Of a DNA stretch of 64,000 bases, positions 17,801 through 64,000 are shown one piece after another. Source of the stretch: Aplysia californica (taxonomy: Eukaryota); assembly GCF_000002075.1 (NCBI RefSeq), contig NW_004797359.1:326347-390346 (forward strand), written 5' to 3'. How positions within the stretch are numbered: position 1 is the first letter of the stretch; each line of letters opens with the position of its first letter. Position numbers and translations under genes: made by a program. The notes under the pieces were generated by a model that searched no databases, had not been told where the DNA came from, and saw only the letters and a program-made list of their open reading frames with translations.

Positions 17801-20800
17801 ATATCCATTTATCATGGGTACAAGTCAAGATATTGGGCGATTGGAGGAGGTGGGCGTCGCATGGTTTTAAAGGTAAAACTAGCAAGAAAATGGCCGCCAA
17901 AGTTGCGTTATTTCCTTAGCTTGAGAGTCCGTAGAAACTGAAAATTTACGTCTTTTATGCCTTTAATCAACATTTTTCAGTAAAATCCACATAGAAGAGA
18001 GTTTTTAAATGGACCTTAAAGGTGTTGAGTGAAAAAAAAAAATTCTATAGAAATTGCCAAACGGACAGAAAAATGCCAGTTTCTTCAATTTCATTATTTT
18101 GATGAGCGCCTGGTTTCACCACACTGCCTCACATATAACGTTTGAATGAAGTGAACACCTTGATATGACAACCTCTTTCCCCTCCCCAGACTTACTTTTA
18201 CTCAAAGCAATTTCTGCTTGCAGTCTTGAAAGTCATCTTTATATTAAAATACTTTTTCAGCGATATAACTTAGGTATATTTTATTTTATTAAACAGACAG
18301 GTGATGAACTACTTCAGTTTTCCCAAAGATCATTGGGACTGTGTGTACTACTATCCGCTGGATTGTTTGTCAGCGTTAGAGCAAGGTGCTACTGAGCCAC
18401 AAACAGCGTTGTCTTCTGCTGCTGCTGAAGCCAAAGAGTCTGTGGAAGGGAGAGATATCTCCGAGTCTGTCTCGTCTGAGGCGGCCAATAATGCTCCAGA
18501 AGTAGAAGGGACCCCTGGATCTACCCCTTCGGAGGCAAACAGCACTCCAGTGATAAAAGGGACTTCAGAGTCCACCCCCATGGACGCAAATGACACTGTG
18601 GTGGAGAAATTAGCCGCTAAATCCACTGATTCGCCCCTGACCACTGGCCCAGTTGAAGAAGCTGGCGTGTCAGGTGATACAACAAAGGAAAGTGGTTGCC
18701 CTGGGGCAAAGGAGGAAGTGCAGGATGATGCAGGTCCTTCTGATGGGGAGAGTGGAGAGGCAGAAACTGCTGAGGTTGGAGAGAAACGCCCTGTGAGGTT
18801 TTTTTAGATAGATATATAAAGATTCTTTTAGGGGAGGGGGGCGAAAATTCTGTTTTTAAAGTACAGAATTACATTTTTAAAATTTAAGTGTTGTCGACTG
18901 GTTAGAAAAGGTTTTTAATTTAAGAATTGTTTGGTTTTTATTTGTATTGTTTTCGTGTGAATTGTTTGTAAAATATCATTACACTACTTTAGACTTCCTC
19001 AGGATTTCTTTTTTTATTAAAGGAATGCATTATGATGAATTTCAGTTTGTTAAGCTACTTCTTCATTATTGATGTCTTAGTTTGCAATTTTACAGTTTTC
19101 ATTTATTTTGCCAAAGTGTTGAAAGTTTGCTACTGATTAGATATTTTTTTTTTTTAAAGAATCTGCAGGGTCAAAGAGTATGTCTGAGATATATTGTTTT
19201 TTCTAGAATACAGGTATCCTTCTGTCAGGTTCATATGAGTTTCAATAAGTGTCATAAAGGCTACAGTAAAACATGACTATTGCGGCACCCGCTGCAACGG
19301 GACCATCCCTACAGCGGTAGCTGACTGGAATCCCCTTTTTTTTTCTATGTAAACTCAATTACTTATGCTTGCGTTTAATGGGGCAAGGAAAGTCCTGAAC
19401 TTTGATACAGCGGGAGAGATCGAGCGAGCTGTAGTTGGGGGAAAGGAGAGTGGGAGGCTGTAGGCGGGCTCCAAACAGGCAGTCAGCGGTGTGGTGTTGT
19501 GATTGGCCAGATGAGTGAGGTGGGGCAGGCGGCAGAGAGAGATGGTGCGTAGAGACGCGTTACGTGAGCCACTCAAAAAGTGATGTGGCCTAGGCTAGGC
19601 CAAAAAGACAGTAAAAGAAGAGGAGAGCGTGTAGTGTGTGATTTTCGGTAATTCCCCTTTGCAATCTTATTACGTGAACTTGTTTACAGAGGGATTTTTC
19701 TTCTGGAACTAAAAGTCCTGCTATAACCATATGCTACTGTATTATTTCAATTTTTTTTGTAACTCTCTGAAAGGATATAATCATGTTTATGATCTGTTCC
19801 TCCAGTTTGTGCCCAACAGGGAAATTCAGAGACAAGCTCGTGCCATACGTCAGAAAGAAGCAGGTGATGCTATTGCAGGCAAGCACTTGGACAGGTAAGA
19901 TATTGTCTTGTTTCGTTGTGTGCAGTCTAAAAGACACATGTGTGTCCGTCTTTTGATTGTGTGACCAGTATGCTGTGATGTAAATTCTCTTATCTTTACC
20001 CAAGCTATTGTTTCCTTGTATTGTACAAACAGTGGAACTCGGATTCAACTAAAGGAGATGGATTCCCCAGTTTATTTTTTTCTTTAAGGGGAGGAGCGAC
20101 CCTTGATTTTGCAGATTTTGGGTCAGGCTATGCACATTTTATATTGGCTGATTTTTTAAGATAAACCTGTTTTTTGTCTAAAAATAGCATGGATACAATT
20201 GAGAAAGACTTTATTCTCCAAGTAAATTGCCTTTAAAAACATGAGGATGGATTAGAATAGTGAATTTTCACAATTATTGTCGGTTTTCTCAAAATGTAAT
20301 TTTTGTGCAGTTTTTTCCCTACTCCTTCCTTAGTTTTTATCCTTTTGACATGAAACTTTCAGGAAACATAGTTAGCAAGACTACCATCAATGTGACAGAG
20401 ATATTTGCGGAAAAAAATGATATTTTTCCATTGGCAAGCAATTACGCAACCTAAATTTTTCAAAAGATTTTTATACTTTGGGAAAATTCTCATATTTATT
20501 TTTCTTTTGCACTTATTGAAAAAAACTTGCTGTTACTCTGATAGGGTCTGGTTCAGGTATACTCTCACCACATTTGGTCAAATTTGGTCTGTAAATAAGA
20601 AAGCCTAAAGGGTTTGAAATTCATTGTTTATTTTCAAGATGGCGGCCGTTTCCATAGCAACCGCTCTAGGTATGCCAAAATAAAATTGCGTTTCAAGAGA
20701 TTTTACTCTGTCTAACTTATATGTGTACTTGGATTTGATGTCGGGCAACAAACATAGAAAATGGTCCTCAAGGGTAGCTCCTCCCGTTAAAATCAATAAA

Positions 20801-25279: not shown

Positions 25280-25293
25280 GTTGAAAATGTAGA

Positions 25294-27029: not shown

Positions 27030-28729
27030 TATTAGGTACAACCCTCAACTCAAAATGGTTAAAATCCGACTTTTTCTACCTTTCTTTAGGCACACACACA
27101 TATTATTTTATATACTAGCTGGGCCCCCTCTCGATGAAAGGTGGTGCATTAACATCAACTGAATATCATTGGTCTATTATATTTACACTCTACTGGAATG
27201 GAGCAATAAATCTTGAGAGAAAAATGGCACATGTGTTTCCAAGTCGCCAAATTTCGTATAATAATAGATGTATAGATTGTTCTTTAGACAGAACACAACG
27301 TTTCGTGTTACTGTTGTATGTTGTACTGTATTGTAAAGCGCTCAGAGCCTGTGTACTTTATTCGGGGTTGAGCGCTATATAAATGTCATTTATTATTATT
27401 ATTATTCTCTTTCCCGCTTTCGTGGGTGTACTCTCAATAATTTCAAAGGTGTGGAATCTGCGCACAGTTAGTGAATGGAGGTCTCGCTTGTAGTCTTAAA
27501 CAGTGTACATGTATAATATATCATTGGATGACAAATTTGTATTTTTAGATGCTGGTAACAATTAGCTTCAGATCAAGTGAAAATAAACTTGTGTTTAATC
27601 TGCAGCTTTGCATCTGTGTTGAAAGAGAGTAAATTGTAAATCTATATTTCATTTCTTATTCTTCACCTACTAAACATCCGTAGGTAATATCAGAGAGTGC
27701 TTCAAATTCTGAGAGGAGGGGGGGGGGGGTATACCTCACTGATACCATACACTTAATTACAGTTGATTANNNNNNNNNNNNNNNNNNNNNNNNNNNNNNN
27801 NNNNNNNNNNNNNNNNNNNNNNNNNNNNNNNNNNNNNNNNNNNNNNNNNNNNNNNNNNNNNNNNNNNNNNNNNNNNNNNNNNNNNNNNNNNNNNNNNNNN
27901 TTTTGGCAATATTTCAATAATATAGGACAATCAGGTCATTGGTATTTTTCAGCTTGAATAGAATATACATTGTCCCCGTTGGATTCTGCGATACAAAACA
28001 ATGTAGTTTATGCCCGCCAAGAGACTAAAGGGAAGTAATAGGAGTAATAAGTCTCTTTTAAGTGACACAATTGGTTATTGCCCTTACTAGGGATTTTTAT
28101 TAATTGAGCATGTTCAATTTTTCAATACGTCAAAAGTTGTTCTCATGTCTGCTGATGTTTCATGTTTGACATGTGTCTCTGGTTTTAGTGTGGTGATCCA
28201 GCATCAGAGGTCCAGATGTCCTTTTTTTTAAGATTTGTAAAAATCATTTTTCTGCCCTCTATACAGCTGAAAGTTGAAAGTTACAGAGATTATATTTTTT
28301 GGTTCTTCTTTTTTCTGACTGATGTGTATCTTTCCAGATACACAAAAAACTACTGATACTGATATGTTCTGTTTTCAATTCTCCGGTACATATCTAAAAC
28401 GTGAATTTTTTTGGTGAAAAAGCGCAAAAGCATGTCGTGAATGGCGCTAGGGTAACTTGCATAATGTTTGCATAATTTTTAATTTGTCTTGCATAATTTG
28501 GCCTTCTAAATTTTCATAATTCTGCGGGGAGAGATACTACCTCCACAATATTTGTTAGAGATAGAGATTACCAGGCCTGTCAGGCAAGGTTGTTGGTGGA
28601 GTACACCCCAGTGAGTACACTCCAGATTAATAGAATTACTTTTAATCTCCTTGGGTACACCACAGACTCTGGGTACACTTGGACTTGGAACTCTTCTGTG
28701 AAAGGAGGCGTATCCATACGACAACAAAC

Positions 28730-39068
<10,339 letters not shown>

Positions 39069-43777: not shown

Positions 43778-44379
43778 CTATGAATCTGCAGAAGAATCTG
43801 ACTGCGCCGGGTATTCATACGTGTGTGGAAACCGACGAACATGTTTCTGCCTTTGGACGGCTTGAATAAAATCCATCTGTAAGTTCATGAACTGATCATC
43901 GTCGAATGAATCAATTATTGGCATCATTGATCTAAAAAAGTTCAGTCTTGGGGAGTCATCCAACTTTTCCACTTGTCTTTGCTTAACAAGCTTGATTAAG
44001 TAATTAGTGTCCTCATTATCTGTACATGCTTGTTTTCTTTTTTTCTTCTTGTGTGCTTTTTCGAATTTCTGTCTACCAGCATCGGGAAGATTTTCCAGAT
44101 GATTGTTGTCGCCATCTGGGGTATTGTCGACACCGGTATATGTCTGTGATTGAGGATTGTCTTGGCAATCATCAAAGTTGGTTTGCTCACTTGTCTCTGG
44201 CTTATAGCCTGAAGTGTAGCGTAGTTGTTTCACGGGCAGGAGGAACATCATATCTTTCTCGAACTTCCATTCTTTGTCATTGCCTGCTCTACTACCAGAT
44301 CGTTTGTCTTTTCTTTTGAGGGCATTCGAAAAGCTGCGAGTCATATTTTCCCAAGTATCTTTGGCGTGAGTGTTTGAAC
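43778..44379 (-). pseudogene. Harbinger ORF2 exon: C-terminal part of MADF/Myb-SANT plus BESS-like motif
   Basis: Acceptor ttttcatag| at 44381-44380; KDTWENMTRSF...SGS......WKFEKDMMFL, and LNFFRSMMPIIDSFDDDQFMNLQMDFIQAV. Confidence 0.75.
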
Positions 44380-45247
44380 CTATGAAAAGAAGAACATACT
44401 ATAATATATAATAGTACTTACAATGGAATTTGTATATATGTTTTGCGTGGCTTAGTATTAATTCATGTATTTATGTATGCATCATATTTTTTCAGGCATC
44501 TGAGTGTTCCCTTTAGGAGCATGTCTATGTTCCCCAGTCAAGTTGCATGCTACGTCATGTTAAAGTGACCAGTTGTAAAGCAGTGGTCAGACTGACCAGT
44601 GGACAAGCAATGGCCTGACTCGACAAGTGGTCAAGCAATGTCAATATGACTAGTGGTCAAGCAATTTATTGGTCGATCTGACAAGTGTTTAAGCGACTGC
44701 AGTCATATTTTGGCCTCAAACGCAGTTGCTTTCCTTCAACCAAAGCTTCTCTACTTACTGGGGGAACATGAGCTGACCCCTTCCTTTTCACATGGCAGCA
44801 AATTCAATTAGTAAACATGTATTTTTCTCGGCATGTTAACTGGAAAGTACTACAGACACTAGAATTGCCTATCCCACCAGCAGAACAATGGGAAAAAAAA
44901 CTTTGCAAAACGATATGGTGACTTGTGGGGGTTTTCTTTCGCCGTCGGTGCTTTGGATGGAAAACATATTAAGCTATAAAAAAAACCCCATAAACAGTGG
45001 ATGTCAGTTTCATCTGTAAGAAGTTCCCTAGTATTGTACTTTGGCACCGTGTGACGCTCATTCGTGTTTAATATCAGTGGACTGTGGTCAGTACGGTAAG
45101 GTCAGTGATACTGGTGTCTATATGATACTATATATGATGCTTCTCGCTTTCCTTTGTGCTTCTTGAAGAAAAACAATTGAAATTGAACATCCCTGAAATA
45201 AAATTCAAAATCTGTGAATTGAACATCGAGATTCTTTTGATGATGGT

Positions 45248-47386: not shown

Positions 47387-47569
47387 GGAGGGGGGGGTGG
47401 CAGATGTATAAAATACCGTACGGATAAATAGACTAGGCAGATAGAATAGATCTCACATTTTTACTCTCTAGGAAGTGAACGACTGTAGTGACCAGGCATT
47501 ACCTGGTGAGTAACGAATTTATTTCACCTGAAATCTTATTCTTCTCAAACGTCTAACCCATCCCTTCAT

Positions 47570-47750
47570 CGCAAAGCGCTCCTCTCTCTGCCGACCCATG
47601 TGAATGTGTGGGCCTCCTTGTTCGTGTCCCCTGCGGCGTGAAGCGCGGCGGAGTGTGCAAAGGCGGACGGGGCTGAACGGGATCGCTCAGGCGTCGCCAT
47701 TTTCGCCATCTTGGAAAAGTTACTCCTCTTTGATACACAGTACTACGGGT
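47570..47750 (+). promoter_or_regulatory. CpG-rich putative promoter / first non-coding exon of the FLYWCH-ZnF gene, with tandem YY1-type motifs
   Basis: Local CpG enrichment; CGCCATTTT (47695) directly followed by CGCCATCTT (47704); candidate donor cgg|gtattg at 47749. Confidence 0.5.
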
Positions 47751-48406
47751 ATTGTTTTGAAAATAATGTGTGTATTATATTGATTTAAAATGGTTACTGT
47801 TGACATCAAAAGTATGGTTACTCTGGCAGGCAGTAGAACTTTATGCTGTTTCGCTGCCAGTTTGGAGAAGTCGCTTCTGCACTGGCAGTGCACTGGGGCA
47901 TCAACCCAACCAGGCGAAAGCTAGCCCAGTTGTTATTATTTTATTGTTGTTATCATTTGCTTGTTTTTGTTTCCTTTTGTTGTCGAGTCCATGCTCTATT
48001 TAGACAGGTTGCAAGAGTAGGCCTAATGCTGGAACCATTGAAGTTTGCCTAGATTCTAGATCTATACTTGTATGGCAAGGCCTTGACAAAACCAGGCCCC
48101 TTGCAATCTATTTTATGCATCATCTGGACTCTCGATTTGTAGATTTCAAGAGACTCTCGAGTGTTTGCACTTTCGTCTTGACTGTAGGCCTAAATGACCT
48201 GCCTTCCAAAAATTTAAAATGAATGGCTTTGTTTTTCTAGAGTTTGTAGGCCTAGAAATCTAGATCTAGACTAAATCTAGTCACATACTTTGCGCAGTAG
48301 TGTAGTTGGCAGGCAACGTTCATGGCGCCCTGAATGCAGTTTGCAGGCACTAGTGAGGTTACGTTCTCATGGCACTTTAAAGCTTCATTTAGGGGGAGCT
48401 TCCACT

Positions 48407-48826
48407 GCCGGTTTTAGATCTTGTCAGTGACGACAGTGATGTTATTTATTTGGACTGCGTCAAGCAGTCCATCCCATGAGCCATGAGATGAAGGCAGGAA
48501 AACGAAGCAGTGATCCTTGACGGATGGATAGAGACCATTCGTCGTTTTCCCTTACACTGAGCTCTAGCTCAGAGCTCGCCGGTGTAAGGGAAATCGACGA
48601 ACTCTCAATTACGCAATTTATGTAACGCTTTTGGATATGACAAAAATGTGTACACCTACCGAGGTGTTTCAATTGTCTCGTGTCCGGATGAGACTTGGAC
48701 GTGACCTTGTGTTAGTGCGTGACGGCCTGTGATAATATAATATTACGAGTCAAAACAAACGTTCCAACACTCTCGAGTTGATGAAAGCATGCTATTTTGT
48801 CTGCGGGCAGTGTGTGTGTGTGTGTA

Positions 48827-48869
<43 letters not shown>

Positions 48870-49842
48870 AGNNNNNNNNNNNNNNNNNNNNNNNNNNNNN
48901 NNNNNNNNNNNNNNNNNNNNNNNNNNNNNNNNNNNNNNNNNNNNNNNNNNNNNNNNNNNNNNNNNNNNNNNNNNNNNNNNNNNNNNNNNNNNNNNNNNNN
49001 NNNNNNNNNNNNNNNNNNNNNNNNNNNNCAGAAAGAAAGAGAGAGAGGTGTTTGTAAAAGTTTGTTAAAAATATTATTATAATATTATTAATAAATGGCC
49101 GCAGCTATTCGGACTTGAGTCCGAATAACCTTCCGTGGCGAGGCCTCTTCGGACTCAAACTCCATTGCGTGTGCGCTATCACTAGGTCACACCGGATGTG
49201 AAGCAGGCAAGCAATTCCACCTTGGCCTTCCTCGGTTTCTGGCCAAGGAACTTACAACAAATGGACGCCGACCGTGGTGACCCAGTGCGAACTGTGGTCT
49301 TTTCTTTACAAAGGATAAAATATATGAAGTGGCTAGCCGTACTTGTAAATGTTTTCATCCCTTTGTAGTCGAGAAACGCAGTGTAATGGCCTACTAGTAG
49401 TTCAAAGTCCGAATAGCTACGGAAGACTATTCGGACTCGAGTATAGAAGAACTCGCTTACGGTACAACCGGTGATTGCGCACACGCACTGGAATTTGAGT
49501 CCGAATAACCCCCAGCGGCTTTTCGGACTCGAGTCTGAATAGCACTTCGAAGAATAATTGTTAATTCCCGTCATTTTTTCTCTGTGTCAGTTACCAGGCT
49601 GACCCTGTACGATACAGTCATACACATTTTATGACCTTTCCCATCTTCTGAATCCCACCTTCTGTTTCCCATCACTCATCTCTTGTTTCTCATGTTACCG
49701 TATCCAATTTTCCATATTATACCCCATATCCGATCCTGACTAATTCTGTTAGGGCGCTTCCTTTTTATTTCATCTCATAGGATGGAACACTTGAAGCTGG
49801 CCAAAGTTTTGTATGTCACTGTCGTCACTGACTAAAACCGGC
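48407..49842. mobile_element. TIR element containing a nested palindromic MITE
   Basis: GCCGGTTTTAG...TCAGTGACGACAGTGA is mirrored by TCACTGTCGTCACTGACTAAAACCGGC. Confidence 0.6.
49104..49543. mobile_element. MITE built from TTCGGACTCGAGTCCGAA palindromes
   Basis: Motif or half-motif at 49107, 49148, 49406, 49428, 49496 and 49522. Confidence 0.6.
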
Positions 49843-50115
49843 TGACTTTTTAACTCTTTCCGGACGTATCTCCGATTCGGTGCAAGTCCACACCCCTGGC
49901 AGACGTATCGGCTATGAAGCGGTGCCTTAGTTTTGTTTCGTTTTAACATGATGCATTATTTACTTTTTATTGTTATTGAAAACTTGGAAAGTGGGATTAG
50001 GAAACGAAAACATCTAGTTTCACGTTGTCAAAGCGTCAGTCTGGCGAAAAACGTGTGAATTAATTCTTACGGTCTTGCATCAACAAAATGATCTAAAAGG
50101 GACTCAGTATAAATA

Positions 50116-51628
50116 CAGGACTTGAAATAGACCGCGGCACCGCGGCAATTTGCCTGCCTTGGTGCCTTTGCAATTTGCCGTAATGCCCTAAAAATCAAAG
50201 GGTCAACTGCGGCAATTTTTGCCGTGCCCTTGTATTTTTGTTTTTAAAAAATGTGCCACCATGAAAATAAATCACTATTTGTCCTGTGCTGTCACTTGTG
50301 GAAAAAAAAAAAGAAAAGAACGTTGTAAAAGCGTCTTGTCGGGTTCGCCACCGTGGCAGGTCAGTGAACCTGCGCGTATCACAACTTAATCAAAAGATTC
50401 GGCATCGTGTGAGCACCGGTTGTTGGGGTAACCAAAGTTCATTCAAAGTCTGAACACCGCGAATTATGGGGCTCCTAAATGGGGGGAATTATTGATTTAA
50501 ACATTTTTTTTAAGATACACTCATGGGAGGGCGGGGTATGGAGAAATCCTGTTAGACTTGTCTGAAATCTCATCAAAGCTTCAGTCAGACACTGCTCAGC
50601 TTGACAATTGTGTCCATTTTGTCATGTCTAGTGCAAACACACTCACAGCAATGATAGCCAAACATCAGCAGTGTCTGAAAAAAAAAAGAAGACTGCATAT
50701 GTGAGAGATGTGGCAAGAGATGTATCCCACAAATAGACGTCCTGATAAAACAACACACTATTCTCTAAAATTATCATTATCTTGTGATACTTTTTAAAAT
50801 CCCCCCCCCCCCCCCCATAAGGGACAGTCAGTAAGCCAGTCTTTTTCTATATTGTCTGATCTAGTCATAAGTTATAAAATGACATGCTGATTGTTATGGT
50901 CTTTTTATATATAACATATGTGTATTTTAAAACTTTTATTTTCAAAACTTGTTTTCATTTATATCATAGTTAGAACCTCACTCTGTTTAACTGCTGGACA
51001 GCAGTTTTTAGTTATTCATTCTTTTTTTTTTTCATATATATATAAGTTCATACGTTGTTTTCACTCCTCATTTTTTTTTCATACAAGTTCATACGTTGTT
51101 TTTATTTTATCACTACACTGCCTGTAAATCACTCTGTTTAAATCTCAAAAGATTAATGGCTTACCTAATTCAGTAATTGGTCATGTTATTTACTGTTTTC
51201 TATCGTGCCCTATTATCAACAGTCATATATTCATTCATATTAATCCAATCAATAAGAGCTAGAATCTAGTCAAAAAGACCTTTAAAAGTCAGATGCAATT
51301 TTGTGATCATTATTTGATTTAAAACTGTGATTTTTAGTGATTTTGTATTGGTGTGATTTTACTGTGATTTACTTAGTTTTCATTCATGATTTAAAAAATT
51401 TTCCTTTAACTATACTTTTGTAGAGAGCAAGAATATAAATTATATTGTTTTTTATATAAATGTTGTGAAGCACGATCCAGTATTACCAACTTTAAACTTT
51501 AATCAACAAAACGATCACCTATAATTTTTGCCTTTGGTGCCCTCGCAAATTGCCTCGGTGCCCTCTGATTTTTAGGCGCCACCGAGGCAATTTTTGCCTG
51601 CCCTCCTGAACACCTAATTCAAGCCCTG
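50116..51628. mobile_element. hAT-like non-autonomous element
   Basis: CAGGACTTGAA ... TTCAAGCCCTG termini; GGCAATTT(T)GCC/GTGCC subterminal repeats at both ends; TAAATA on both flanks. Confidence 0.65.
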
Positions 51629-51901
51629 TAAATATCATAATTTAATTTTTTTTTAAATGGGAATATGGAGGTTATATATTATGTGGCAATAATTTTGTTG
51701 TCCTCCTTTTTCACACTCTGGAATGTTTAGATTTTCCCTCTGTAGAGTATATTTTAAAATGAAGAAAAAAAGCCACTGAAACTGAAAGACCATTATTTTC
51801 TCTTTTGCAGCTCCAGCTTGTGTGTACATTTTAAATTGAAAAGATGATTGGATGAATGATTTCTTCAATTCAACTATTTCTGTGACTGAGAAACCTGCAA
51901 G

Positions 51902-52672
51902 ATGGATTTTGAGATGGAAAGTGCAGAAAACTTGACAAGGGATAATAATGATGCGTCTGTTGATCTAGAGTGGCAGGTAGACTCCGAATGGATTGATTTG
52001 TCAACTTCAGCAGCCTCTTCAGGTGCCAAGAGCAAAAAAGGCAGAAAATCTGGTGCATCGAAAGTTGATAAAAATGTGCCTCAAAATTGTCATTTTATTC
52101 CTACCAGCCAAGGATCACGTTTCTTAGTTGTTGAAAATCAAACCCTAAGATTGAGTAGAAGAAGTCCGTCTGGATACTCGTATTGGGTTTGTAGTATACC
52201 ATGCTGCAATGCACGTTGTGTACTTGATCCTGCCGAGAAGATCACGAGATACTCTGGGGAACACAACCATGACGCAGATGTAAGTCGTGCTGAGTACAAG
52301 ATCTTCATAAATGCCTTAAAACTGGCAGTGAAGGAAAACCCACACGTGAAACCCAAGGTTTTGTACGATGCTGAATTAGAGCGTGCAAGGGAACGATGGA
52401 AGAAAAGCAATAAAAATTATGGCAATGAAGATGAGCCCTGCCTGCCTAGCTTCGACACCGTGAGGACGGCCATGTACAACACAAGAAACGCTGTCTTGTC
52501 CTCCTTCTCTCTGAAAGCGGCTGGGGATGAAACTGTCCCAGTGGAGGCAGGGAAGAAAAGTCAGGCAGGTCCGAGCAGGTCGACTCGATCAAGTAACACA
52601 AAAGGAGGAACCAAGAGGAAATCTACATCTGCAAAAGCAGGGTCTACCAACTCAACAGATTTAGAGGAGTTG
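51902..52672 (+). CDS. FLYWCH exon (FLYWCH zinc finger plus MULE-transposase-like helical segment)
   Basis: Acceptor ttttgcag| at 51810; open 257 codons; TTG|gtaagt donor. Confidence 0.85.
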
Positions 52673-55600
52673 GTAAGTGTTTTTGTTCACTCCCCTTTCC
52701 CCCTTTCCTTCTTCTAATTTTATTTACACTATTCCTAATAGTCTCCGACGTCAGCTTGTGTAGCATTTAATTGAGCTGGACAATAGTAATATTTCCATTA
52801 ATACGATTAAAACAAAAAAATTGAATGTAATCACTTAGTGAACATGGAATCAAATCTATGTTCAGAGTTCGTATTTTAGGTGCTGCATAAATTTTATAAG
52901 GACAACAGCCAGTGAAGAATCAGGCAAATAATGTCTCTTTGTGCATGAATCTAAAACCACCTTCTAAAGATGACTATCACTGCTATCAAGTTTTGTGAGC
53001 CTTAAATATTTTCAAAAAAAGGAGTCGTCAGTCCCCTCCCCACACCAAAAAGAATAAAATATAGTCAGGTGTTTGCTGCAAAATTTGGTGTTTTGGGGGC
53101 AATTCTGATTTTGTGACTTGTTCACTGACTGCTTCAGCTATTTGCAGTTATACTTTTGTTCTGTGTTGGTTGTCATGCTGAATATGAACTTCTAATGGAT
53201 CAGTTTTATTTCAGGTTTCTATTTATTTAATATCATCATGCATTTTAGTACTGCTGTAGATACTCTCAAGAAGAGTTTAAGGTCTCATATTGTATTGCTT
53301 TCTTCAGGAATTGTTCACATGACTTCACCAGCTGGAATCCTTTGAAGTACAATAATTCATTTCTTGATTTGCAGAATTACTTTAAAAAAGTTTTATAATT
53401 TACTTTCCAAGGCAGGCCATGTCTTTCTCTGAAGCCTTTGACATGGACTCGTTAAGTCTTATCATTATGATTCATTTTCCAAAACAGGCCATGTCATTCC
53501 CTGGTCTTTAACTTTGACTCACAAACATATTGGGCACTGAGTAAAAAAGATTTTAAATTTCATTGTCACATTCACAGTATGAACAAGCTTATAAATTTTA
53601 TGCGATCTTTGCTCTATCTCAACAGTTCTGGAAGGGATTTTGTGTCAAATGTTGAATAAAAGGGCTGTGCGTTAATGGTATGAAATCATTCTTTCAATGA
53701 AAGAAATGGTTTATAATTCAGAGTACAAAAAGTTTTATAATTTGCTTTTATGTTATTGTTGAACTGAGGGATTTTGTCATGAAGTTTCACCAGATGTGAT
53801 GTCTGATGTCCTAAGGAGCTTGGTTTCCCAAAATTCGAACTCAGAAACGTCTGTTTTCCTAGAGTTACCTGAAGGGGTGCAGAAAATCTTCACATCATAC
53901 TGTCATGTATCTCTATATTCTTTAAATTTTTCATTGTCAGACGCTGTTAAATTGTGCCGTTTAAAAAAATCGGTAATATTTCGAAAGCAATGTAAAAACT
54001 GACATTTTTACACAAATTTTGTCTCTCTGCTTTGTTCAGTGTTATTTCTCACAGATTGTTTTATGATAGAGGGTCTGAATTGCACAATTTTCTGTCTCTG
54101 CCGTTGTTATCATTGTTCATTGTTGGTACCTCTTTTACAATACTTATTGTTTGAAGTTTGATGCTTATGGAAACGAGCAGTTGGAGGGCTTTGCTGTTGG
54201 ATTTTACTTCTTTTCTTTCCCCCTGTTGTTTCTGTCTACCTGTCCTACTCTTTCCCTTCCCTAAATGACTGTTATTGTTTGATGTGCTTCTCTTCACTCG
54301 ATCAAACAAACAATTACAAGGTGCACATGGGATGGTATAAAATATCCATATTTTTTATTGTTTATTCTTCATTGTTTCTCTTTTTCACATTGCCTTGCTC
54401 TATGTTAGCATTTTTATTTTGTTGTTCTCATCAGTCAGGACAACATACAGACTCTCCGTGTTGTTACAGCTTCATGGTGCTTCTTGAGCATTGCTGAAGA
54501 TTTTAACTCAATCTGTTTTTTGATTATAAAGTAACAAAGTTTTTTTGTGTGGCTATTTTATTTCTTTTCATTTTATGGGTTTGCTTTAACAGTAAATTAT
54601 ATATCACAGCATCCAGACATATTTAAGTATTTAACGATATTACTTTTTTTTAAAAAGCTTTGTAGTTGGACATCTTGGGGATAGTCTTTGTGGTCTCTGT
54701 CCTTTTCAGTTGAGAATAGCAATGTTCTTTGTTTTCTGAGTGTACTTTACAAAATATATTTTGCTTTGTTTCTGTCCAGAAGCATACATCTATGCTTTCT
54801 TTCCAGTGTTCCTGACATCTTTATCAATATCAGTGATTTTTTCTTCTCTTTTTTTTTCTTGTTTAGAAAAACGTTTTCTGATTTCATTTCATCAAAACAC
54901 AGTGATGTTGATAAGGTGATGACCACATTGTCATTGATCCTACACATACTCAAAAACATGATTGTGTTACAGTTGTTGGAGCAGGTTGTCAGAGACTGGG
55001 TTCACAGTGTGCCTCAAGTGACACTCCATATGAATGAATCATTTAGAGTTAATCAGACTTCCATGTCAAATTAATGAAAATTCTTAACAATAGTTTCTAC
55101 TTTGCAGTTCCCATCATGAACATATTATTCACTTTTGTTTTGTTACTCCTGTTAATCTTATTTTTGTGTCATGCACCCTTTTCTGTTTGACAGATGCTGG
55201 GAAATTTTGTCTTTCGGGTTTTTTAGGAGTTTATATTTTGGCACACTTCTTATTCAGTTTGGTGTATACATGCTCAGACTAAAAGATCTTTCACAATCGA
55301 AGGATTCAAGACTATCTTTACTTTTGTTATTTGTTAATCCAGATGTAGTGGAGTCTGCTCAAGCCAGCATCTGCACCACTTCGTTTTCCTCGGATTAGCC
55401 CCGTTTTTTTTTTTTTAAAGCATATTGCTTGAAATAGAAAAAAAATGAGAATGGATTTATTTTTCTTTCGGTTTACAGCTATTTTGAGGATTAAACATGT
55501 CCGAATTAAGCGGACTCCACTGCATATAGTCATATAGTTTAAGATAGTAAAATAATGATGAAGAAATTAAGACTGCTTGCAGTACTTACACATAACATGA

Positions 55601-58600
55601 GTTAAGGTAGGGATATTAAGGACCTGTATGCTTTGAAAAAAATCAGACCTTCTGTTTCATAGCACTCACATTTGCTTTTTTTGTATGATGTAATAATTGA
55701 GAACATTGCATGACCTTTTTAGCCTTTTGAATGTATTGATTTCATTTATATATTGTGTTTTTAATGGTTTTCCACCCTTTTGTTTTGATCTCGATAGAAA
55801 AAGGGTCTCTTTCTCTTGAGATTTTCTTTGCAAATTGTTTACTCCCCTTCCTGGTCTTGGATTTTGGAGTGGCTGTTTTCTTTTTCAGTTCTTGTCAGAT
55901 TATCTTAAGTTGTCAGTGGATTTATATTCTTTTTAAATCTTGTGTCTTAAATAATGGGCATCTTATCTTAGCTCCAATCTCTATTGGAAAAAAAGTAAAA
56001 AGGAGAAAAGTTTAGCAGACCAAATCTTTAAAATAATACTGCACCACAGGTCTCTATAAAGTTGTAGATTTTAATCGGATGTCAAGATTTTGGCTCACAC
56101 TCACTACAGGAAGCTAAAATAAATTTCTGTATGCAGGTGGGAATTCGCATGACTAGTTTTGACCGAAATTAGTCCTGTAGGTTGTATCACAGTCTTTTAA
56201 TCATAAAAAGGGACTCAGTAATTTTAAGTTTAAAAAAACAAAAAAACCCACATAAAAACTTCACTTTCTAAGATCTCGCTGTTTGAGAGATGGATTTTTT
56301 TCTTGTCAATACTATGAAAAAGCATTTTCATTTTATTTCAAGGGCTTGGGGGAAAGTGAACACAGAAGTTTGAAATGGATAAAAAGGCCAAAAAAATGGC
56401 TTGAGTACACCCTGGCCTACTTTGAATGGAACAAGCTGTAGGAAAATTCATTGAAAATTTGCTTTTGAGAATTAAAGATTTGTACCAAAAAAAAAAAAGA
56501 CGTATCTGGCTCTGCCAGTCATACTAAGGGCTGGGTCCAGGTCAGAAGATTAAAGCCTTTTTTTTTCATAAAACGAGGCTCTATTCTAAGAACCAAAGAG
56601 GGAATTTATGCATGTATGATTTGGAGGTTATAATTTGCTTTGCTCTTGTGTTTTGTTTGGTTTTATGTTCCTTTTTATTTGGTAGCTGCTCCTGAGATTT
56701 GTCTTGGTTCTTTTCACATCATGTGTGAATTTAGTGTCAAATCTGCCTTTTGCATGTCTGGATTCAGAGTAATTTGTTTGCTCCTCTGTTAGTGGCTATG
56801 TTGTCTTGTGTCTGCTTTTGTGCTTGTTAATCAATGTGGGCATGCTCTTATGCACCTATAAATTGTATCAGATCAATATCGGCCGTACATATGTAAACTG
56901 TGTGGCGTGGGTGGTTTGAGGGTGTGATATGTTGTAGGCCTTTCGTCTTCCTTTTATATGCAATTATCTGTCTGTCGTCTTCTTTTTTTTCTAGCACTTA
57001 AAGACCCTCATTGTGTCAGAGTGCATGTCTTTTTACTAAAAATGAGGCGAAAAACTTTTTTTGTATACAATATTCATATTTGGATGACAGCTGGCCACAT
57101 CATAAACGAGATGTAATTTTTTTCCGTTAATTTGTCTTCATTTTTCTCTTTCGTTAAACTGCTACAGTTGAGGATTGAAGGTGGGTACCTTCGTCTGTGT
57201 GACATGTATTGTTGTCAGTCTTTTCATGTTGCAGAGCAAATTATTCCTCCAAAATCATGAGTACATGTTTAGTTATGTCAACTTTTTGTAAAGCTTCCAT
57301 TGCTTTCATGTATTTATTGTACTTTTCTTCCAATTATAGTCATAGGTAGGACGTACGATAGTTTTGATAGAGTGAAAGTCATAGATAGGATGTGCGATAA
57401 TTTTGTTGAATACTTTAGTTTAAGGACAGCATTGTATCTTGGAACTGAAAAAAGACACCTTAACAAATAATAAAGAGGTTTTAAATGGAAGTGTCTTTGA
57501 AATTGGTATTTTTAGATTTGTAATAACTCATTTCTAATTAAATTAGGTCTTGAAAGTGTCAGTGAGAGTGAAACTTACGATTTTCAGTGAAATTTTAGTT
57601 GCTGGCTCATATTTTTTTGTAAACCTCAAAGTGCTTTTTCTTGCTTCCTTGTTAATCATATAGGAGGAAGAATGGTGCAATGAACCACACAAAGATGCTA
57701 ATTTAAGTGACTTTGAGGAGTGGCTAGAGGACGATGTCAATGCCAACATATCGTCGGTTGTTACCCCGAAGATCAAAGCCATTGAGCCCCAAGAAGAGGC
57801 GAGAATCATCATGCCGCTGATTGTGTCTCCACGGAAACAAGGCAAGGACCAGGAGCAACCGGCTGCCAAGAAGGCCAAGGTTGCAAAGGAAATGAATCTT
57901 GTCACAACTACGAGCGAAAGTGATGAGGTAACTTTTTGTTTTTTGTGTGTGGATGGTTGGCGGGTGCTCAGGTATGGTTTGCTCCTTCTTTCCTATCAAA
58001 CATCTGTCGTCCTTATCTCCCCTCCTTCTTTTTTATGTTTGTTACTCTCTTGTAACACCTCTAATCTTCTGGCGCTCATATGACCTTGCAGTTGCGAGCG
58101 CCGTAAAACCTCTACTAAGACAAACAAGTTTTTTGTGTTGTGCAGTGGGCTTCCTTTGGCCTGCTCCTTGCATTGTTGATGTACAATGTATGTCCTAAAA
58201 GACAAGCTGCTCTATATCGTGTATTGACTTTTGCTATACATCCAACTCGACTCTTATTGCATGAATTTGACAGACTGTTGAAAGTTTAAGGTAATAAGAG
58301 TGACATTCCCTGAAAGAGTAATTATTTCGGTTGACTTTTCAATGTATGTTTGAGTGGGTTTTAAATAAGGAAGGCTGGTAAGTGCAAGTTAGCAGAAAAA
58401 TGTCCGGCTCGAGGCTGGGAAAATATCTCATCAAGGACAGGTCAATGATATAAAAAGTGGACTGTGATGAAATTACTTCCACTTACCATTTTGGAAAGAA
58501 GATTGACAAACAGGTTAGTTTTTATTGTGAAATGGAAATTTTTTAAGATCAAGTTGTGGAGAACAGATTAGAAGTAGGTAATAAAATAATAGATAGCATT

Positions 58601-60256
58601 TGTATAGCGCAAATCCCCGCTCAACAGCAGGCTCTATGCGCTTCACAATCTATACTATTACCCCAGCAGACCTGAGAGCATTCTGAAACAACCTCAACTT
58701 CCTGGGAAGCGTACAGTGCCAGCGGCCATTTATAGGCGCTAAAACACTAACATACTGACAAGATCTTTTGCTGTCTATGGCTGGGTACCCATTTCCACCT
58801 GGGTGAAGTGAGGAAAATTTGTGTAAAGTGCCTTTCCCAAGGACACAACGTCGGGCCCGCGGCTCAAACCCTCGACCCTGCAACCTCACAATTACGAGTC
58901 CGGTAGCCTAACCACTAGGTACTGTAACTATGTTGAAAGTGGCTTCATCTTGTGCCCCTTCTTAACTCTTAGAGATCACTCCCAGGGTCCTGATTTACAG
59001 CTAGGGATGCAGCAGTTTGAGATGTTGTGAAATGTTCTTGGGTAAAAATGGAAATAAAGGTATAAGTAAAGTGTTTTTTTTATTTGTACTCTTCATTATC
59101 TAATCAAATATGAACCCAAAGATTAGCAATCTTAACATAAAACAGTATTCACTGTTCAGTTCCCAAATCAAGAAATTTGTTTTATCAAGTGTCACAGTTC
59201 AGATTCTATATTCTTCCTGGGTTGGCCCTGACAGGCAGGTTGACTGCTACTCGAAAATGATCTGAATTGTGTCAGGGGGGTGTAATACATTTGTCTTCAC
59301 CCATGGACTGTCATGTTGAAATGTGATGAACTCTGTGAGTTGTATAGGATATAGTTTGTACATGCGGAGGAACTCCTAGTTTCATTTTTCGAGCTGGACA
59401 GATTATGTTTTTTTCTCCTGACTTGGAAAAATTGCCATTGTTCTTTTGCAGTTGAATATACTTACCCGTTTGTCATGATAGTAGTTAGAAATGTAGAAAG
59501 CAAATCACTAATGTGAGGTTGGTTGTTTTTTTTTTTCAGAGTTACTTAATGGATGGAAGCATGTCTGCGGATGGTGCCCCAAGACGTAAATATCGGAAGC
59601 GAGCAATCTCCTCCTCAGTGTTCACATGCACACACTGCCCATACAAGTCCAACCGGCACTTCAACGTCCAGCGGCATGAGAGGCTGGCCCACTCCACCAA
59701 GAAGCCAGAGTTCAGCTGCCAGGAGTGTGGCACCTCGTATTCGCTAGAGTACCGCCTCAAACTGCACATCAAGGCGGTGCACCAGGGTGAAGGCCACCAC
59801 TGCCACATCTGTAACCGTACGTTTGAGACAATGACGGGCCTCAAGTCCCACGTGGTCACCAAGCACAAGAACGAGGAGCACAAGGTGCAGCAGGAGCCAC
59901 CGCCAGAGCTCACCTGCAAGCTCTGCGGACGATTCTTCTCCACAAAGTCGCACCTCCAGAAGCACACCAGCACCCATGTGATGGTGCAGCCCTACCGGTG
60001 CTTTATGTGCAACGAGCCCTTCATGGAGGAGTGCAGCTGGCTGTCGCACCAGAACAACTGTTCGGCGCCGTTCAAGATCCAGTGCTGCCTGTGCAGTGCG
60101 GTGATACCCACGCCCCAGGAGCTGCTGGTTCACATGGACACAGTACACGGCCGGTCAGAGTACTCCTGTACCTGCGGCAAGACTTTCCCCTGGAAAAAGT
60201 CTCTGCTCACGCACCAGCAAAAGTGTTCACTGCGTGCGGCCGAAAGAAGTGCTTAA
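51902..60256 (+). CDS. FLYWCH-domain plus multi-C2H2 zinc-finger protein; 3 coding exons, 583 aa
   Basis: join(51902..52672,57664..57927,59540..60256); all GT-AG, phase 0. FLYWCH (F..TSQG.RFL...YWVC....C.AR...HNH) at aa 65-123; NLS-like PAAKKAK and PRRKYRKR; seven Cys/His fingers in the last exon. Confidence 0.8.
57664..57927 (+). CDS. Middle exon: acidic segment (EEEW..DFEEWLEDD) and NLS-like PAAKKAK
   Basis: catatag| acceptor, GAG|gtaact donor; 88 open codons; phase 0 at both ends. Confidence 0.75.
58581..58915 (-). mobile_element. CORE-type tRNA SINE with L2-like tail
   Basis: Minus strand: tRNA-like head, CCTTGGGAAAGGCACTT..CACCCAGGTGGAAATGGGTACC core, TGTGAAGCGCATAGAG...GCGCTATACAAAT tail; TAGGTA on both flanks. 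Confidence 0.85.
59540..60256 (+). CDS. Terminal exon with seven C2H2/C2HC zinc fingers
   Basis: Poly-T cag| acceptor. Fingers: CTHC..HERLAH, CQEC..HIKAVH, CHIC..HVVTKH, CKLC..HTSTH, CFMC..HQNNC, CCLC..HMDTVH, CTC..HQQKC. GC3-rich coding bias. Confidence 0.9.
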   Translation, partial: SYLMDGSMSADGAPRRKYRKRAISSSVFTCTHCPYKSNRHFNVQRHERLAHSTKKPEFSCQECGTSYSLEYRLKLHIKAVHQGEGHHCHICNRTFETMTGLKSHVVTKHKNEEHKVQQEPPPELTCKLCGRFFSTKSHLQKHTSTHVMVQPYRCFMCNEPFMEECSWLSHQNNCSAPFKIQCCLCSAVIPTPQELLVHMDTVHGRSEYSCTCGKTFPWKKSLLTHQQKCSLRAAERSA

Positions 60257-61938
60257 CACAAATCAATGTGTTCATATCACCCCTCTTTTATTGTCCTTAA
60301 GGGGTGGGGGGATCTAGGGCAACCTTCTCTGGGAGTTAGTTTGATTGAGTAACATTGAGTGACAGTAGCTGGTGTTTTATAGAATCTGCTTTATGCAATC
60401 ATATTTTCAGAAGATTTTTATATGCAGAAAAGAAAGTGTGTTGTGAAATTAGGGAAAACTGGTTCTTTTAAAAAATTGTTGGGCTCTCAATCTATTGTCT
60501 TCCTGATATAAGCATCATGTTGGAAAATTTTGTGACTTTCCTGTTAAGGTTTCTTGCAGAATTGTTTGTGTCTAATGTTCTGGTTTAGAATTTGTAGTAA
60601 GTATGCTAGTCCTATGGATCTGTTTTTCATTATAATTCTACGCAATCAGTTTTCTGTACCATTTGACCATCTTGAGCATTTTACATTAATTGTGAGGACA
60701 AAATACCCTTCATTGTATTCTCTCGATCAGATGTTTCAGGTATGGAAAATTGAAACCTAAAGTAAAAAAAAAAGAAATAATAAAAGATAGAAAGATATCT
60801 TTAAAATGGTACAAGGTATTCTTGTGAATCTGAGCATCTTGGCGGAGCCAGTGAGTGTGAAAATCGGTACTATTTATAGGAAGTTGTGTATCACATGCTC
60901 AAAGAGGAAGAGCAGAGATTATTCTTTAAAAAACTCAATTTTAGAAATGGTAAAATGTTTTCACCTGCAATGATAGTGGTAAAGTGGTTACATTTGTATT
61001 ATTGTGTACAGAGGACATTTATTGTAAGGGAGTGAGCCATAAAGATGCCTTTGAAGTTAGTGCTAAGTATTGATGATAGGTGGGGGTTGTTTTTTTTTAG
61101 GGGGGGGGGGGGAGGTTGTTTTGTGTGAGTGTTAGTGAGTGCTTTCCCCTTCCATTCTTCTTTGGGGTTAGCTCAGACAAAGAAGACTGCTTGAAGAGTG
61201 TTGTGACTTGCAGATACAAAGAAGTTCTTATTTAGCCATTATCCCTCATTTTGTTGTGGAGGACAGATTGGAAGCAGATACTATAACTATGTTGAAAGTG
61301 GCTTCATCTGTTTAAAAGAATGTACATTTTTATATCATTACATATGGCATATCAAATCATGCATATTTTTACACACAGTATTTTTGTGTACTTAAGTAAG
61401 ATCTTCCAACATATCGAAGTTGTGATCTCTGGATTTTCCCCACCTATTTTTCCATACACATAAATGTATGTGTATGAAATTTTATTCATTGAAAGTGCCT
61501 TACTGGGGTTGTGATTTATTTTTGGTCACTTTTTTTCTTGTGCCTCTTCTGGTATGCATAGAGGCTCGTTTTAAGAGCTTAGTGGATATAATTTTTATTA
61601 TCTCCTCTATGAAGCTGACATTTATATTTGCTGTTGTCATTACTCGAATGATTACATATTGTGTGTTCCTGGTTGTAATGTGAATGTGACATGTGAAGAA
61701 AGGCGTCGCCATTGCTTTGAGGTTGTAGTTTTAGTTTGCTGAACACTTAAGGAAATGGCTTATTCCTCCATGCCTTGCATGATGAAGCCAAAAGCTCTTC
61801 ACTGCATGTTTTTTTTTTACTTTTGCGTAAGTGGTCAAAGATATCTGTATCTGTTTTTAACTCTCTTTTCCAGCACACACACAGTGATTCACCATACTTA
61901 CCTCTGTAACTTGGACTTGAATGTATGCAGTAATACTA

Positions 61939-62608
61939 CAGTGAAACTCGCATATAACGAAGTCGTCGGGCCCAACTTCAAGTTTGTTTAATCTGAGTGT
62001 TCGCCATACGAGAAAGCTGTGACTAAAGTGAATGTTTTTTATCGATAATGATAGGGACATGCTCGCGCAAGATTCATTTTTTGTTCTTTGAAGTGTACTG
62101 CAGGAAAATTTGGAAATGCTTTATGAGCATCACCATGTTCAGGCTCTGGTGATTGTTGCCTCTTCAATGCAGGTCTATGTGTTTCTTGGTCCATGAGTGA
62201 TTTGATCATTTCTTTGTCTTTGAAAAAATGTTGACAGGTATCATGGTGCAGCGCATTTCTAACTTCAAAAGAAAGCTTGTGGCTATTCACATAAATGCAC
62301 ATGTGTCTCTGTTAAGTTGATTGCAGTGTGCGGTGTATATATGCAAATAAGTGTGTATTCATCCATGGTCAGAGCCACACCCTTGTCTACTCTATCTCAA
62401 GAGATCGGCGACTCTACACCATGGATGATTACGAAGCCACATCAGTGGGGGGCTGTTCATTCTGGAAGCGACTTCAATGAGTTTGATGAGTTTGCTCATT
62501 TAAATGTTCTTTCAATACAAGGAATTTACTGATTTTAATGAGTGAAAAAAAAATGGGGAATCATTTTCTTTTTGTTGAGTCCGGGTTTGTTTTATCCGAG
62601 TTCCACTG
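61939..62608. mobile_element. Tigger/pogo-type MITE
   Basis: ta|CAGTGAAACTCGCATA ... TATCCGAGTTCCACTG|ta. Confidence 0.7.
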
Positions 62609-62945
62609 TATTCTTTGATGCATGTTGTGCTTTACTACCATTATTGTATTAATGAGTATTTGAAATGTAGCTCGTGAATTAGTCTTAAGACATTCTTTTT
62701 TTGTTTGCACTTTTGTATGAGTTGCAGAGATGTACAGCATGTTTATTTTCTTTTCCTTTTATATTGTAATTGTTTTAGGACTGGGAAGCAGTTACTTCAG
62801 CTGGTACGCCAATTGACCACAGTCTAACTACCTATATTCAGTTCCCTCTGGTTTCTGAACCAAGGATATTTTACAAGAGTCATGGATAACATGAAAACAA
62901 AAAAACTTTCTATTTCTCCAGTTATAGCTAGATCTATACGTTATA

Positions 62946-63099
62946 CAGTGAGTCCCCTTATACTGAACACATATATTTCGGAAACAGCGGTAAACCAAAA
63001 GTAAATAGTAAAGATTTTTTCCTTTCTATTTGAACAACCTCGTCATACTGAAGAAAATCTGGCAGGTCTGCAGGTTTTGGTTTTTAATGGACCCCACAG
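62946..63099. mobile_element. Short degenerate Tigger-type MITE
   Basis: ta|CAGTGAGTCCCCTTA ... TAATGGACCCCACAG|ta. Confidence 0.45.
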
Positions 63100-64000
63100 T
63101 ATGTTGATCTTGTAGTCCTGACAATTCAGAAGCTTAGTGTGGAAGTGGTGTAATTAGGCACTTACTGTATTCATTTACTGGGTTTGTAGTAGGCATTGCT
63201 GCATGCTGTCATTAGTTTGTGAAAGGAATTTGTATTATTTTGTCTTATGAGTACTGGTAGCTCAGTTCCTTTGAATGTTTATGTTCTTGTATGTGATGTA
63301 GCCCCTGCCCTTTCTTCTTGGCTACAATTTTTATGTCTTTAATTTCAAGTCTTCTCCCTTCACATCACATGATTTGTGTATTTTAATGTGGAATTTTTAA
63401 ATTTTAGAAACTGCCTCGTGCATCGGGGAAAATAATGATTTTGCACTTAAGATTATTTTTTTTTAAGTTTGTTCTTTCATTGTGTCTTTGATGTTATTCT
63501 TTTCCTATTTCTGTTGTGTCTGTGCCTGTATCTGTTTTATCTTTTTTTGTTTTTGCTCCCTTTTTTTGCTATTTTTTTTTTTTTTTCATTTCTGTATAAG
63601 TTCAGTTGAATGTTTTTGGATTTTCCATGGTGGAAAGAAGGTATGCTGCACTACAGCACTATGGTTATAGCTGTGGCTCAGGCAATTGATGACTATCATA
63701 TGGTGAAATCAGGGCCCACAAATTATTTCTTTACCTACCTACTTTTTCTACGGCACATACTGCTTAATTTTAGACACATTCTCAATGTTCTGACACAACC
63801 ATGAAAATATTGTTGTTTTCCCTTATGTCTAATATTTTCTTAGCCGTTTTTACATGCATGTTTTAGTCTTATTTTGGCGCATTCACTGTCCTCAGCATGG
63901 TATAAGATTTGGAAGTGCTTTGTGCTTTGCCTTCTCAGATCTTTGTTATGCTCTGAATGCTCTCTGTGCATAGACAGTTAACAACCCAAGTTGAACTGGA

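Follow-up and report, generated by a model that had tools for sequence, protein, structure and literature searches.

We analyzed a 64,000-nt stretch of the Aplysia californica genome (contig NW_004797359.1, positions 326,347 to 390,346, forward strand), which we will call the window. It contains a gene that an earlier sequence-only reading described as a fusion of a FLYWCH module, related to the transposases of Mutator-like elements (MULEs), to a seven-finger C2H2 array. The three exons are real, and the locus is A. californica LOC101859393. A search with amino acids (aa) 55-205 gave a 100% match to the 1,584-aa RefSeq protein of this locus, XP_005094823. Its first 257 residues are exactly those encoded by the first coding exon in the window (E1), and its other 1,327 aa are not encoded in the window.

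The exons of LOC101859393

The coding part of E1 (51902-52672) has 771 nt, or 257 codons. It is open, and it ends at the donor GAGTTG/gtaagt. The sequence-only reading had placed this intact coding exon correctly, but the exon really starts at 51811, 3' of a non-coding exon (E0). The cDNA of XP_005094823 begins at window position 47556 and splices from 47748 to 51811 (PMC10027918, supplement), as judged along with the donor and acceptor letters and the CpG ratio in the window. When E1 is joined to E2 and E3, every join is in phase 0 and there is a single stop, at the end of a 583-aa product, so the predicted in-phase splicing of the three exons holds. The G+C content at third codon positions (GC3) is 0.42 for E1, 0.55 for E2, and 0.76 for E3, which agrees with the description of the finger exon as GC3-rich. 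Two CGCCATnTT motifs in E0, at 47695 and 47704, are YY1-like. Within the window, a motif scan found just one A[AT]TAAA 3' of the stop, at 60779; this is a candidate poly(A) signal. A scan of introns in 52673-64000 found no further phase-0 exon candidates of 45 codons or more.

Table 1. Features of LOC101859393 and its neighbors, in window coordinates
Feature	Position	Strand	Basis or remarks
E0, non-coding first exon	47556..47748	+	XP_005094823 RefSeq cDNA (PMC10027918 supplement); CpG-rich promoter region
E1, common first coding exon (likely)	51811..52672	+	ATG at 51902; 257 codons; phase-0 donor; equals aa 1-257 of the 1,584-aa RefSeq protein
Acidic-aromatic motif W-Q-[VI]-D-S-[ED]-W, aa 20-35	51959..52006	+	7/16 columns invariant, 9 sequences
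FLYWCH zinc finger, aa 65-123	52094..52270	+	Pfam PF04500, E 5e-8; PDB and fold match 2rpr
Predicted three-helix domain, aa 124-200	52271..52501	+	transposase-region HMM; model pLDDT 92.6
E2	57664..57927	+	264 nt, 88 codons, phase 0/0; tatag/GAG ... GAG/gtaac
Acidic-hydrophobic motif LSDFEEWLEDD in E2	57703-57735	+	conservation
E3, last coding exon	59540..60256	+	717 nt, 238 codons + stop; poly-T CAG acceptor
Probable 3' untranslated region, finger form	60257..60784	+	X9 contig spans 60139-60655; motif scan
Exons of EGLN/PHD-type prolyl hydroxylase gene (presumed), upstream	28646-29776, ~31360-31460, ~33600-33700	+	Pfam match to a MYND finger (E 2e-9), plus catalytic motifs at 31370, 31403, and 33642
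206-codon open reading frame	43778-44398	-	weak Pfam match to MADF, E 0.015, below cut-off
Broken frames like non-LTR (long terminal repeat) reverse transcriptase/RNase H	11467-13125	-	assigned by eye
Tc1-like transposase fragment	2797-3177	-	assigned by eye
Coding-like open frames, another gene 5' of the hydroxylase	18274-18807, 25000-25284	+	first has no credible Pfam match

The N-terminal module is homologous to MULE transposases

Profile comparisons show that the FLYWCH-plus-helices module of E1 shares ancestry with the N-terminal part of MULE transposases from animals. The finger (aa 65-123) scores 33.4 bits against the FLYWCH family, above the curated cut-off of 23.6, and has the ligands W-x-C...C...H-x-H and a WRKY-type sheet. 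Its closest sequence match in the PDB is human FLYWCH1 (2rpr), which also matches its fold (Z = 8.3, root-mean-square deviation 2.1, 75 aligned). The predicted model of the whole module has six strands and three helices, with a high predicted local distance difference test score (pLDDT in Table 1).

For the helices, we built a hidden Markov model (HMM) from the post-FLYWCH regions of 19 transposases. This matched aa 131-200 of E1 at 33.2 bits, while the maximum among 2,000 shuffled sequences was 6.3, so aa 124-197 are related to MULE transposases, as the sequence-only reading had proposed. A profile of seven modules found 1,968 representatives at E ≤ 0.001, many of them aligned over both finger and helices. 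We scanned 52 of these matches, hand-picked by length and coverage from 150 listed: 19 scored above Pfam's MULE cut-off and 2 more below it. With an HMM of the helices only, 17 of the 19 Pfam-MULE proteins scored above the best of 950 shuffles (8.2). Among the matches of at least 280 aa (n = 73), the helices were present in 19/20 with a catalytic region and in 8/53 without one. Pfam did not report the three helices, which recur as part of the MULE module. Fold searches with the helix domain found no clear solved relative: the top hits (Z = 6.5-6.8) were among generic helical bundles, and some helix-turn-helix entries (Mu transposase, TnsB, CENP-B, GT-1) were within background, at Z = 4.8-5.4. 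The closest transposases are only 25-31% identical to the module.

The Muta1 transposase has an N-terminal FLYWCH finger and binds the terminal inverted repeat (TIR) of its own element (PMC5499845), and human FLYWCH1 gives a measured DNA motif (bioRxiv 2024.11.11.622097). By analogy, it is plausible that the predicted module binds DNA.

We found no match to the MULE catalytic domain in any of the six frames of the window, and neither the three exons nor five orthologous proteins match Pfam's MULE family (PF10551). The transposase HMM matched the window and five long-form proteins over the first ~145 of its 461 positions only. No long inverted repeat brackets E1 in 47500-64000, where the inverted pairs that span E1 are short and AT-rich, at 26 nt or less (among the 25 longest of 27 pairs). 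Thus, the sequence-only reading was right that the module is followed by no catalytic (DDE) domain and flanked by no TIRs. No element ends that 8-9 bp target-site duplications would flank were found at E1. Among the long proteins that we searched, just one Aplysia protein matches the module.

A probable common first exon and two predicted DNA-binding ends

XP_005094823 contains seven FLYWCH repeats. Of the six after E1, five have the helices and the last is reduced to a finger. RefSeq lists this array protein alone for LOC101859393, among the matches seen. Long forms were also matched in Lymnaea, Physella, and Biomphalaria glabrata. Other orthologs join the FLYWCH module to the fingers. These include 524-589 aa proteins from Bulinus, B. 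pfeifferi, Elysia chlorotica, and a 1,948-nt Logan contig, as well as proteins from Candidula, E. marginata, Plakobranchus, B. glabrata, and a 2,027-nt contig that encodes 613 aa. All nine of the finger-form proteins that we checked contain FLYWCH, the E2 motif, and finger 1; two of the nine are from the contigs of only 1,948 and 2,027 nt. A cluster mate of the 613-aa protein continues into the intron at the end of E1, which indicates that the 613-aa protein is a spliced product. The joining of the FLYWCH module to the finger array, as first predicted for Aplysia, is therefore found in conserved orthologs.

In B. glabrata, the finger and array forms have an identical 261-aa start. A constant 5' coding exon with two DNA-binding ends is thus present both in Aplysia (our model plus RefSeq) and in B. 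glabrata. In B. pfeifferi, B. glabrata, and Bulinus, an array model that lacks E1 holds the accession adjacent to the finger model. Bradybaena has models with E1 plus the array and with E1, E2, and the array. Since the Biomphalaria and Bulinus models have both ends in the same order, E1 is likely to be a first coding exon that is common to two alternative last exons. Both known forms contain E1. The simplest layout, we infer, is E0-E1 followed either by E2-E3, which encode the fingers, or by a skip to array exons past base 64000.

Conserved motifs and the finger array

Fingers start at 59627, 59717, 59801, 59915, 59999, 60083, and 60167. There are seven, as predicted, but two of them (5 and 7) end in Cys and are C2HC; the other five are C2H2. 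The linkers are not of the TGEKP type. Helix positions -1, 3, and 6 of finger 1 are R, N, and R, and such residues at these positions typically contact bases.

Across nine sequences, conservation peaks at fingers 1-4, the helices, FLYWCH, a basic run, and the acidic-aromatic motifs at aa 20-35 and 258-285, and the linkers drift. The proportion of invariant columns is 58/85 in fingers 1-3, 25/77 in the helices, and 19/61 in FLYWCH. Identity to eight orthologs is 76-94% for fingers 1-4, 52-71% for the module, and 15-28% for the second part of E2. Within aa 1-62, no column outside the acidic-aromatic motif is invariant. E2 had been described as an acidic exon with a nuclear localization signal. 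Its acidic motif is indeed conserved, but its basic patch is not: of 60 columns in aa 286-345, none is invariant. A basic run that is conserved, RRKYRKR, is instead found at the start of E3 (59582-59602; 7/11 columns invariant). One Bradybaena model also has E2, placed after E1 and before the FLYWCH array. In E2, no in-frame ATG precedes the LSDFEEWLEDD motif. Acidic motifs built around a hydrophobic-x-x-hydrophobic-hydrophobic core are similar to activation domains. Given their sequences, LSDFEEWLEDD is likely to be of the activation type, and the motif at aa 20-35 likely binds a cofactor.

The sequence-only reading also drew an analogy to KRAB-type silencing, which the data do not support. 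The three exons and five orthologous proteins have no Pfam match to KRAB, BTB, ZAD, SCAN, or SET domains, and fingers 1-3 are 92-94% identical in 7/8 orthologs. Automatic names of the orthologs, such as "KRAB and SCAN domains 7," are misleading, as Pfam finds no such domain.

A search of the Atlas with fingers 1-3 returned generic C2H2 clusters only. Two ENA proteins have fingers 1-3 at 60-78% identity and are divergent beyond them. Scans of metagenomes for orthologous DNA gave 0/94 usable candidates, and one of 67 was an unrelated finger protein (29%).

RNA support for the splice junctions

The E2-E3 junction (57927^59540, GT..AG) is present in one contig of run X9, at a depth of 3.9; that X9 is RNA is our guess. 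This was one of the two junctions proposed by the sequence-only reading. No Aplysia read showed the other, 52672^57664. The E1 donor and the E2 acceptor are intact in the Aplysia sequence. A search of sequence runs for the locus listed none recorded as RNA, which is uninformative on expression. Three raw poly(A) read runs, which were swamped by an intronic repeat, show no exon junction and nearly zero depth on E1 and E3. Highly repeated and abundantly transcribed elements lie in the E2-E3 intron, at ~57950-58130 and 58580-58900, and took most of the mapped reads.

Age and order of events

To place the modules, we built a quick tree of 61 modules; 60 of the 121, from unclassified matches, were left out. 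The six full modules fall into six separate clades, each of which spans Aplysia and panpulmonates (SH-aLRT, a Shimodaira-Hasegawa-like likelihood-ratio support, of 95-100). The array and the fusion thus predate the split of Tectipleura, whose radiation is dated to 230 ± 50 million years ago (PMC7931591). By this evidence, the gene spans Tectipleura (~230 million years) and is old, not Aplysia-specific. One-to-one orthologs with conserved motifs are found in at least 10 named species, and they span Euopisthobranchia and Panpulmonata, so the proposed lineage-specific novelty at the level of Aplysia can be set aside. As for whether the gene is domesticated, it is conserved at the protein level in eight orthologs, with a clade for each module, and it is intact across distant species.

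The sequence-only reading had a host zinc-finger gene capture a transposase exon. This direction is unproven, as E1 is repeat 1 of the seven FLYWCH repeats in the second product. We favor the other order, in which the finger exons joined a FLYWCH gene that was already domesticated, because the start codon lies in E1 and E1 belongs to a series of seven repeats.

A probable conserved two-isoform transcription factor

Taken together, LOC101859393 is probably a conserved host transcription factor gene with two isoforms, in which the MULE-derived E1 is spliced either to seven fingers or to six further FLYWCH repeats. What we observed directly are three open exons, homology to MULE transposases, a junction between E2 and E3, a RefSeq protein that joins E1 to the array, and both forms among the orthologs. 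We propose that one MULE DNA-binding module was domesticated before the Tectipleura radiation, lost its catalytic domain, and was then duplicated in tandem. E2 and E3 would lie within the intron that follows repeat 1, and the protein made would depend on whether the proximal last exon, with its poly(A) site, is used. The 583-aa form would enter the nucleus via RRKYRKR and would read host DNA mostly by fingers 1-4, with assistance from the FLYWCH-helix module. The two conserved acidic-aromatic motifs may recruit cofactors, with activation likelier than silencing. Present targets would be conserved host promoters and not live transposons.

Several observations weigh against parts of this proposal. 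First, the MULE set came from a profile that contained the helices, which biases its scores upward. An older cellular gene could have been the immediate donor, because the helices also follow FLYWCH in many non-catalytic proteins. A single origin of the repeats at the locus is weakly supported: they all lie on one side of a branch with support of 69 (79 in a reduced set). Some FLYWCH domains of Mod(mdg4) work via proteins and not via DNA (PMC3169594). Second, the finger form of Aplysia was not found in two protein searches, and most of the finger-form orthologs are gene-prediction models. In Aplysia reads, the E1-E2 junction is not among the joints listed (15 of 18), and an X9 contig (52413-52886) runs through the E1 donor. 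Third, no array exon lies in the window, and our placement of these exons in Aplysia follows the order of accessions in other species. Finally, it is from sequence composition that the acidic motifs appear more likely to activate than to silence.

More tentatively, it is possible that heterobranchs independently built a BTB-free switch gene, like lola or mod(mdg4), from the head of a Mutator transposase, and that the constant exon is swapped between C2H2 and FLYWCH arrays in a tissue- or neuron-specific manner. If so, then one promoter would drive two different target programs.

Among the alternatives, the strongest is that a host zinc-finger gene captured the MULE exon and that the fusion binds MULE TIRs or miniature inverted-repeat transposable elements (MITEs), either to silence them or as a regulatory network. 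We consider this unlikely. It would account for the MULE homology and the loss of the DDE domain, and the finger module may be old, since fingers 1-3 are retained at 60-78% identity in two proteins that are more divergent. There are precedents for binding to the parent element, as human JRK still binds Tigger elements and the Muta1 transposase binds its TIR (PMC5499845). However, the start codon is in E1, which is also the first of the seven repeats of the gene. In the case that Cosby et al. work through (bioRxiv 10.1101/2020.05.07.082677), the transposon inserts into a downstream intron of the host gene. The nearest transposases are distant (25-31% identity), Pfam finds no repressor domain, and fingers that are near-invariant over ~230 million years seem easier to reconcile with stable host targets than with an arms race.

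Somewhat less likely still, E2-E3 might be a separate, nested zinc-finger gene, with an E1-E2 join that is rare or is a prediction artifact in Aplysia. That no read joins E1 to E2, that RefSeq has only the array protein for the locus (among the matches seen), and that two ENA calls hold the finger exon alone would all fit. On the other hand, nine orthologous proteins have the join, two of them on transcript-sized contigs; both junctions are in phase 0, with an intact acceptor and donor in Aplysia; and E2 has no in-frame ATG before its conserved motif. Last, that E1 is a fragment of a recent, multi-copy MULE that lies by chance 5' of a zinc-finger exon has only the similarity to transposases in its favor and is largely refuted by the one-to-one orthologs in at least 10 named species, by the lack of TIRs or a catalytic remnant, and by the low read depth on E1 while the intronic repeat at ~57950-58900 is deep.

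Other features of the window

Upstream of LOC101859393 on the same strand are exons of a prolyl hydroxylase gene, which we take to be of the EGLN/PHD family. The open reading frame with the weak MADF match, on the opposite strand near the promoter, is possibly a Harbinger-related MADF gene. The first intron of LOC101859393 holds a MITE-like element of ~430 nt (49099-49534) with nested inverted arms of 35 nt (91%) and 27 nt (85%).

Comparison with known systems

Among MULE-derived DNA-binding factors, human FLYWCH1 is the best PDB match to LOC101859393, with the match restricted to the finger. FAR1 and FHY3 of plants are also MULE-derived DNA-binding factors and retain the transposase body, which is absent from LOC101859393. 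The FLYWCH-MULE transposases Phantom and Muta (PMC3169594, PMC5499845, PMC6446971) resemble our gene in the N-terminal FLYWCH and the same helical region. In contrast, LOC101859393 is a spliced, orthologous host gene with no DDE domain or TIRs, and its identity to them is 25-31%.

Repeated FLYWCH or FLYWCH-helix proteins without a catalytic domain also occur in insects and a barnacle (P0027, P0030, P0128, P0034). Such proteins suggest that tandem arrays of the MULE module arose several times. In the gastropod Littorina saxatilis, XP_070180617 has four FLYWCH-helix modules and then a Kruppel-type C2H2 array, so that both types of domains are in one protein. We considered whether it is orthologous to LOC101859393 and rejected this: its fingers are only ~26% identical to those of LOC101859393, and its four modules group elsewhere in the tree. 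It is likely, from these sequences, an independent fusion of the same types of domains, and it suggests that gastropods may have fused the MULE head to C2H2 arrays more than once. FLYWCH and C2H2 fingers also occur together in a case from Lottia (PMC10027918, supplement).

XP_005094823 itself was listed as Ac_FLYWCH1, a transposon-derived FLYWCH factor, by Mukherjee and Moroz (2023; PMC10027918). That entry is for the same gene, but as an array protein with one domain; the available part of the paper describes no finger form, helical module, or alternative ends. Its 59 Aplysia factors are said there to lack homologs in Biomphalaria, whereas LOC101859393 has clear orthologs in Biomphalaria. The annotation should be corrected on both counts: the finger form is missing among the Aplysia proteins that we found, with misleading KRAB and SCAN names elsewhere, and a gene that was catalogued among lineage-specific domestications has clear orthologs. 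The gene as its long form, domesticated FLYWCH genes, and alternative DNA-binding ends were already known. The finger form and the two-ended layout may be new and are moderately surprising; we found no account of either in the literature, with subscription journals mostly outside our coverage. LOC101859393 is a defined candidate transcription factor that is shared by Aplysia and Lymnaea, which are models for neurobiology, and by Biomphalaria and Bulinus.

In the host-transposase fusions of Cosby et al., and probably in our gene, transposase-derived and host domains are encoded by distinct exons that splicing brings together, and an alternative transcript exists as well. The fusions of Cosby et al. 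come from tetrapods and mostly combine KRAB with the DNA-binding domain of a transposase, and the part of that text available to us does not mention Mutator, FLYWCH, or C2H2. With LOC101859393, spliced fusion as a route from transposase to transcription factor would include molluscs as well as the FLYWCH module of Mutator. The geometry is also unusual: the constant first exon of LOC101859393 is the one derived from a transposase, it is joined to a further DNA-binding array, and the two forms have apparently been kept for ~230 million years.

The closest parallels in layout are mod(mdg4) and lola of Drosophila (PMC11426971, PMC1702500), in which a constant front exon is joined to alternative last exons that encode FLYWCH or C2H2 fingers. 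Both mod(mdg4) and lola have an N-terminal BTB domain, 20-30 ends, and trans-splicing. In contrast, LOC101859393 has no BTB domain according to Pfam and has two known ends; its constant part is the FLYWCH module, and E2 and E3 are colinear on one strand.

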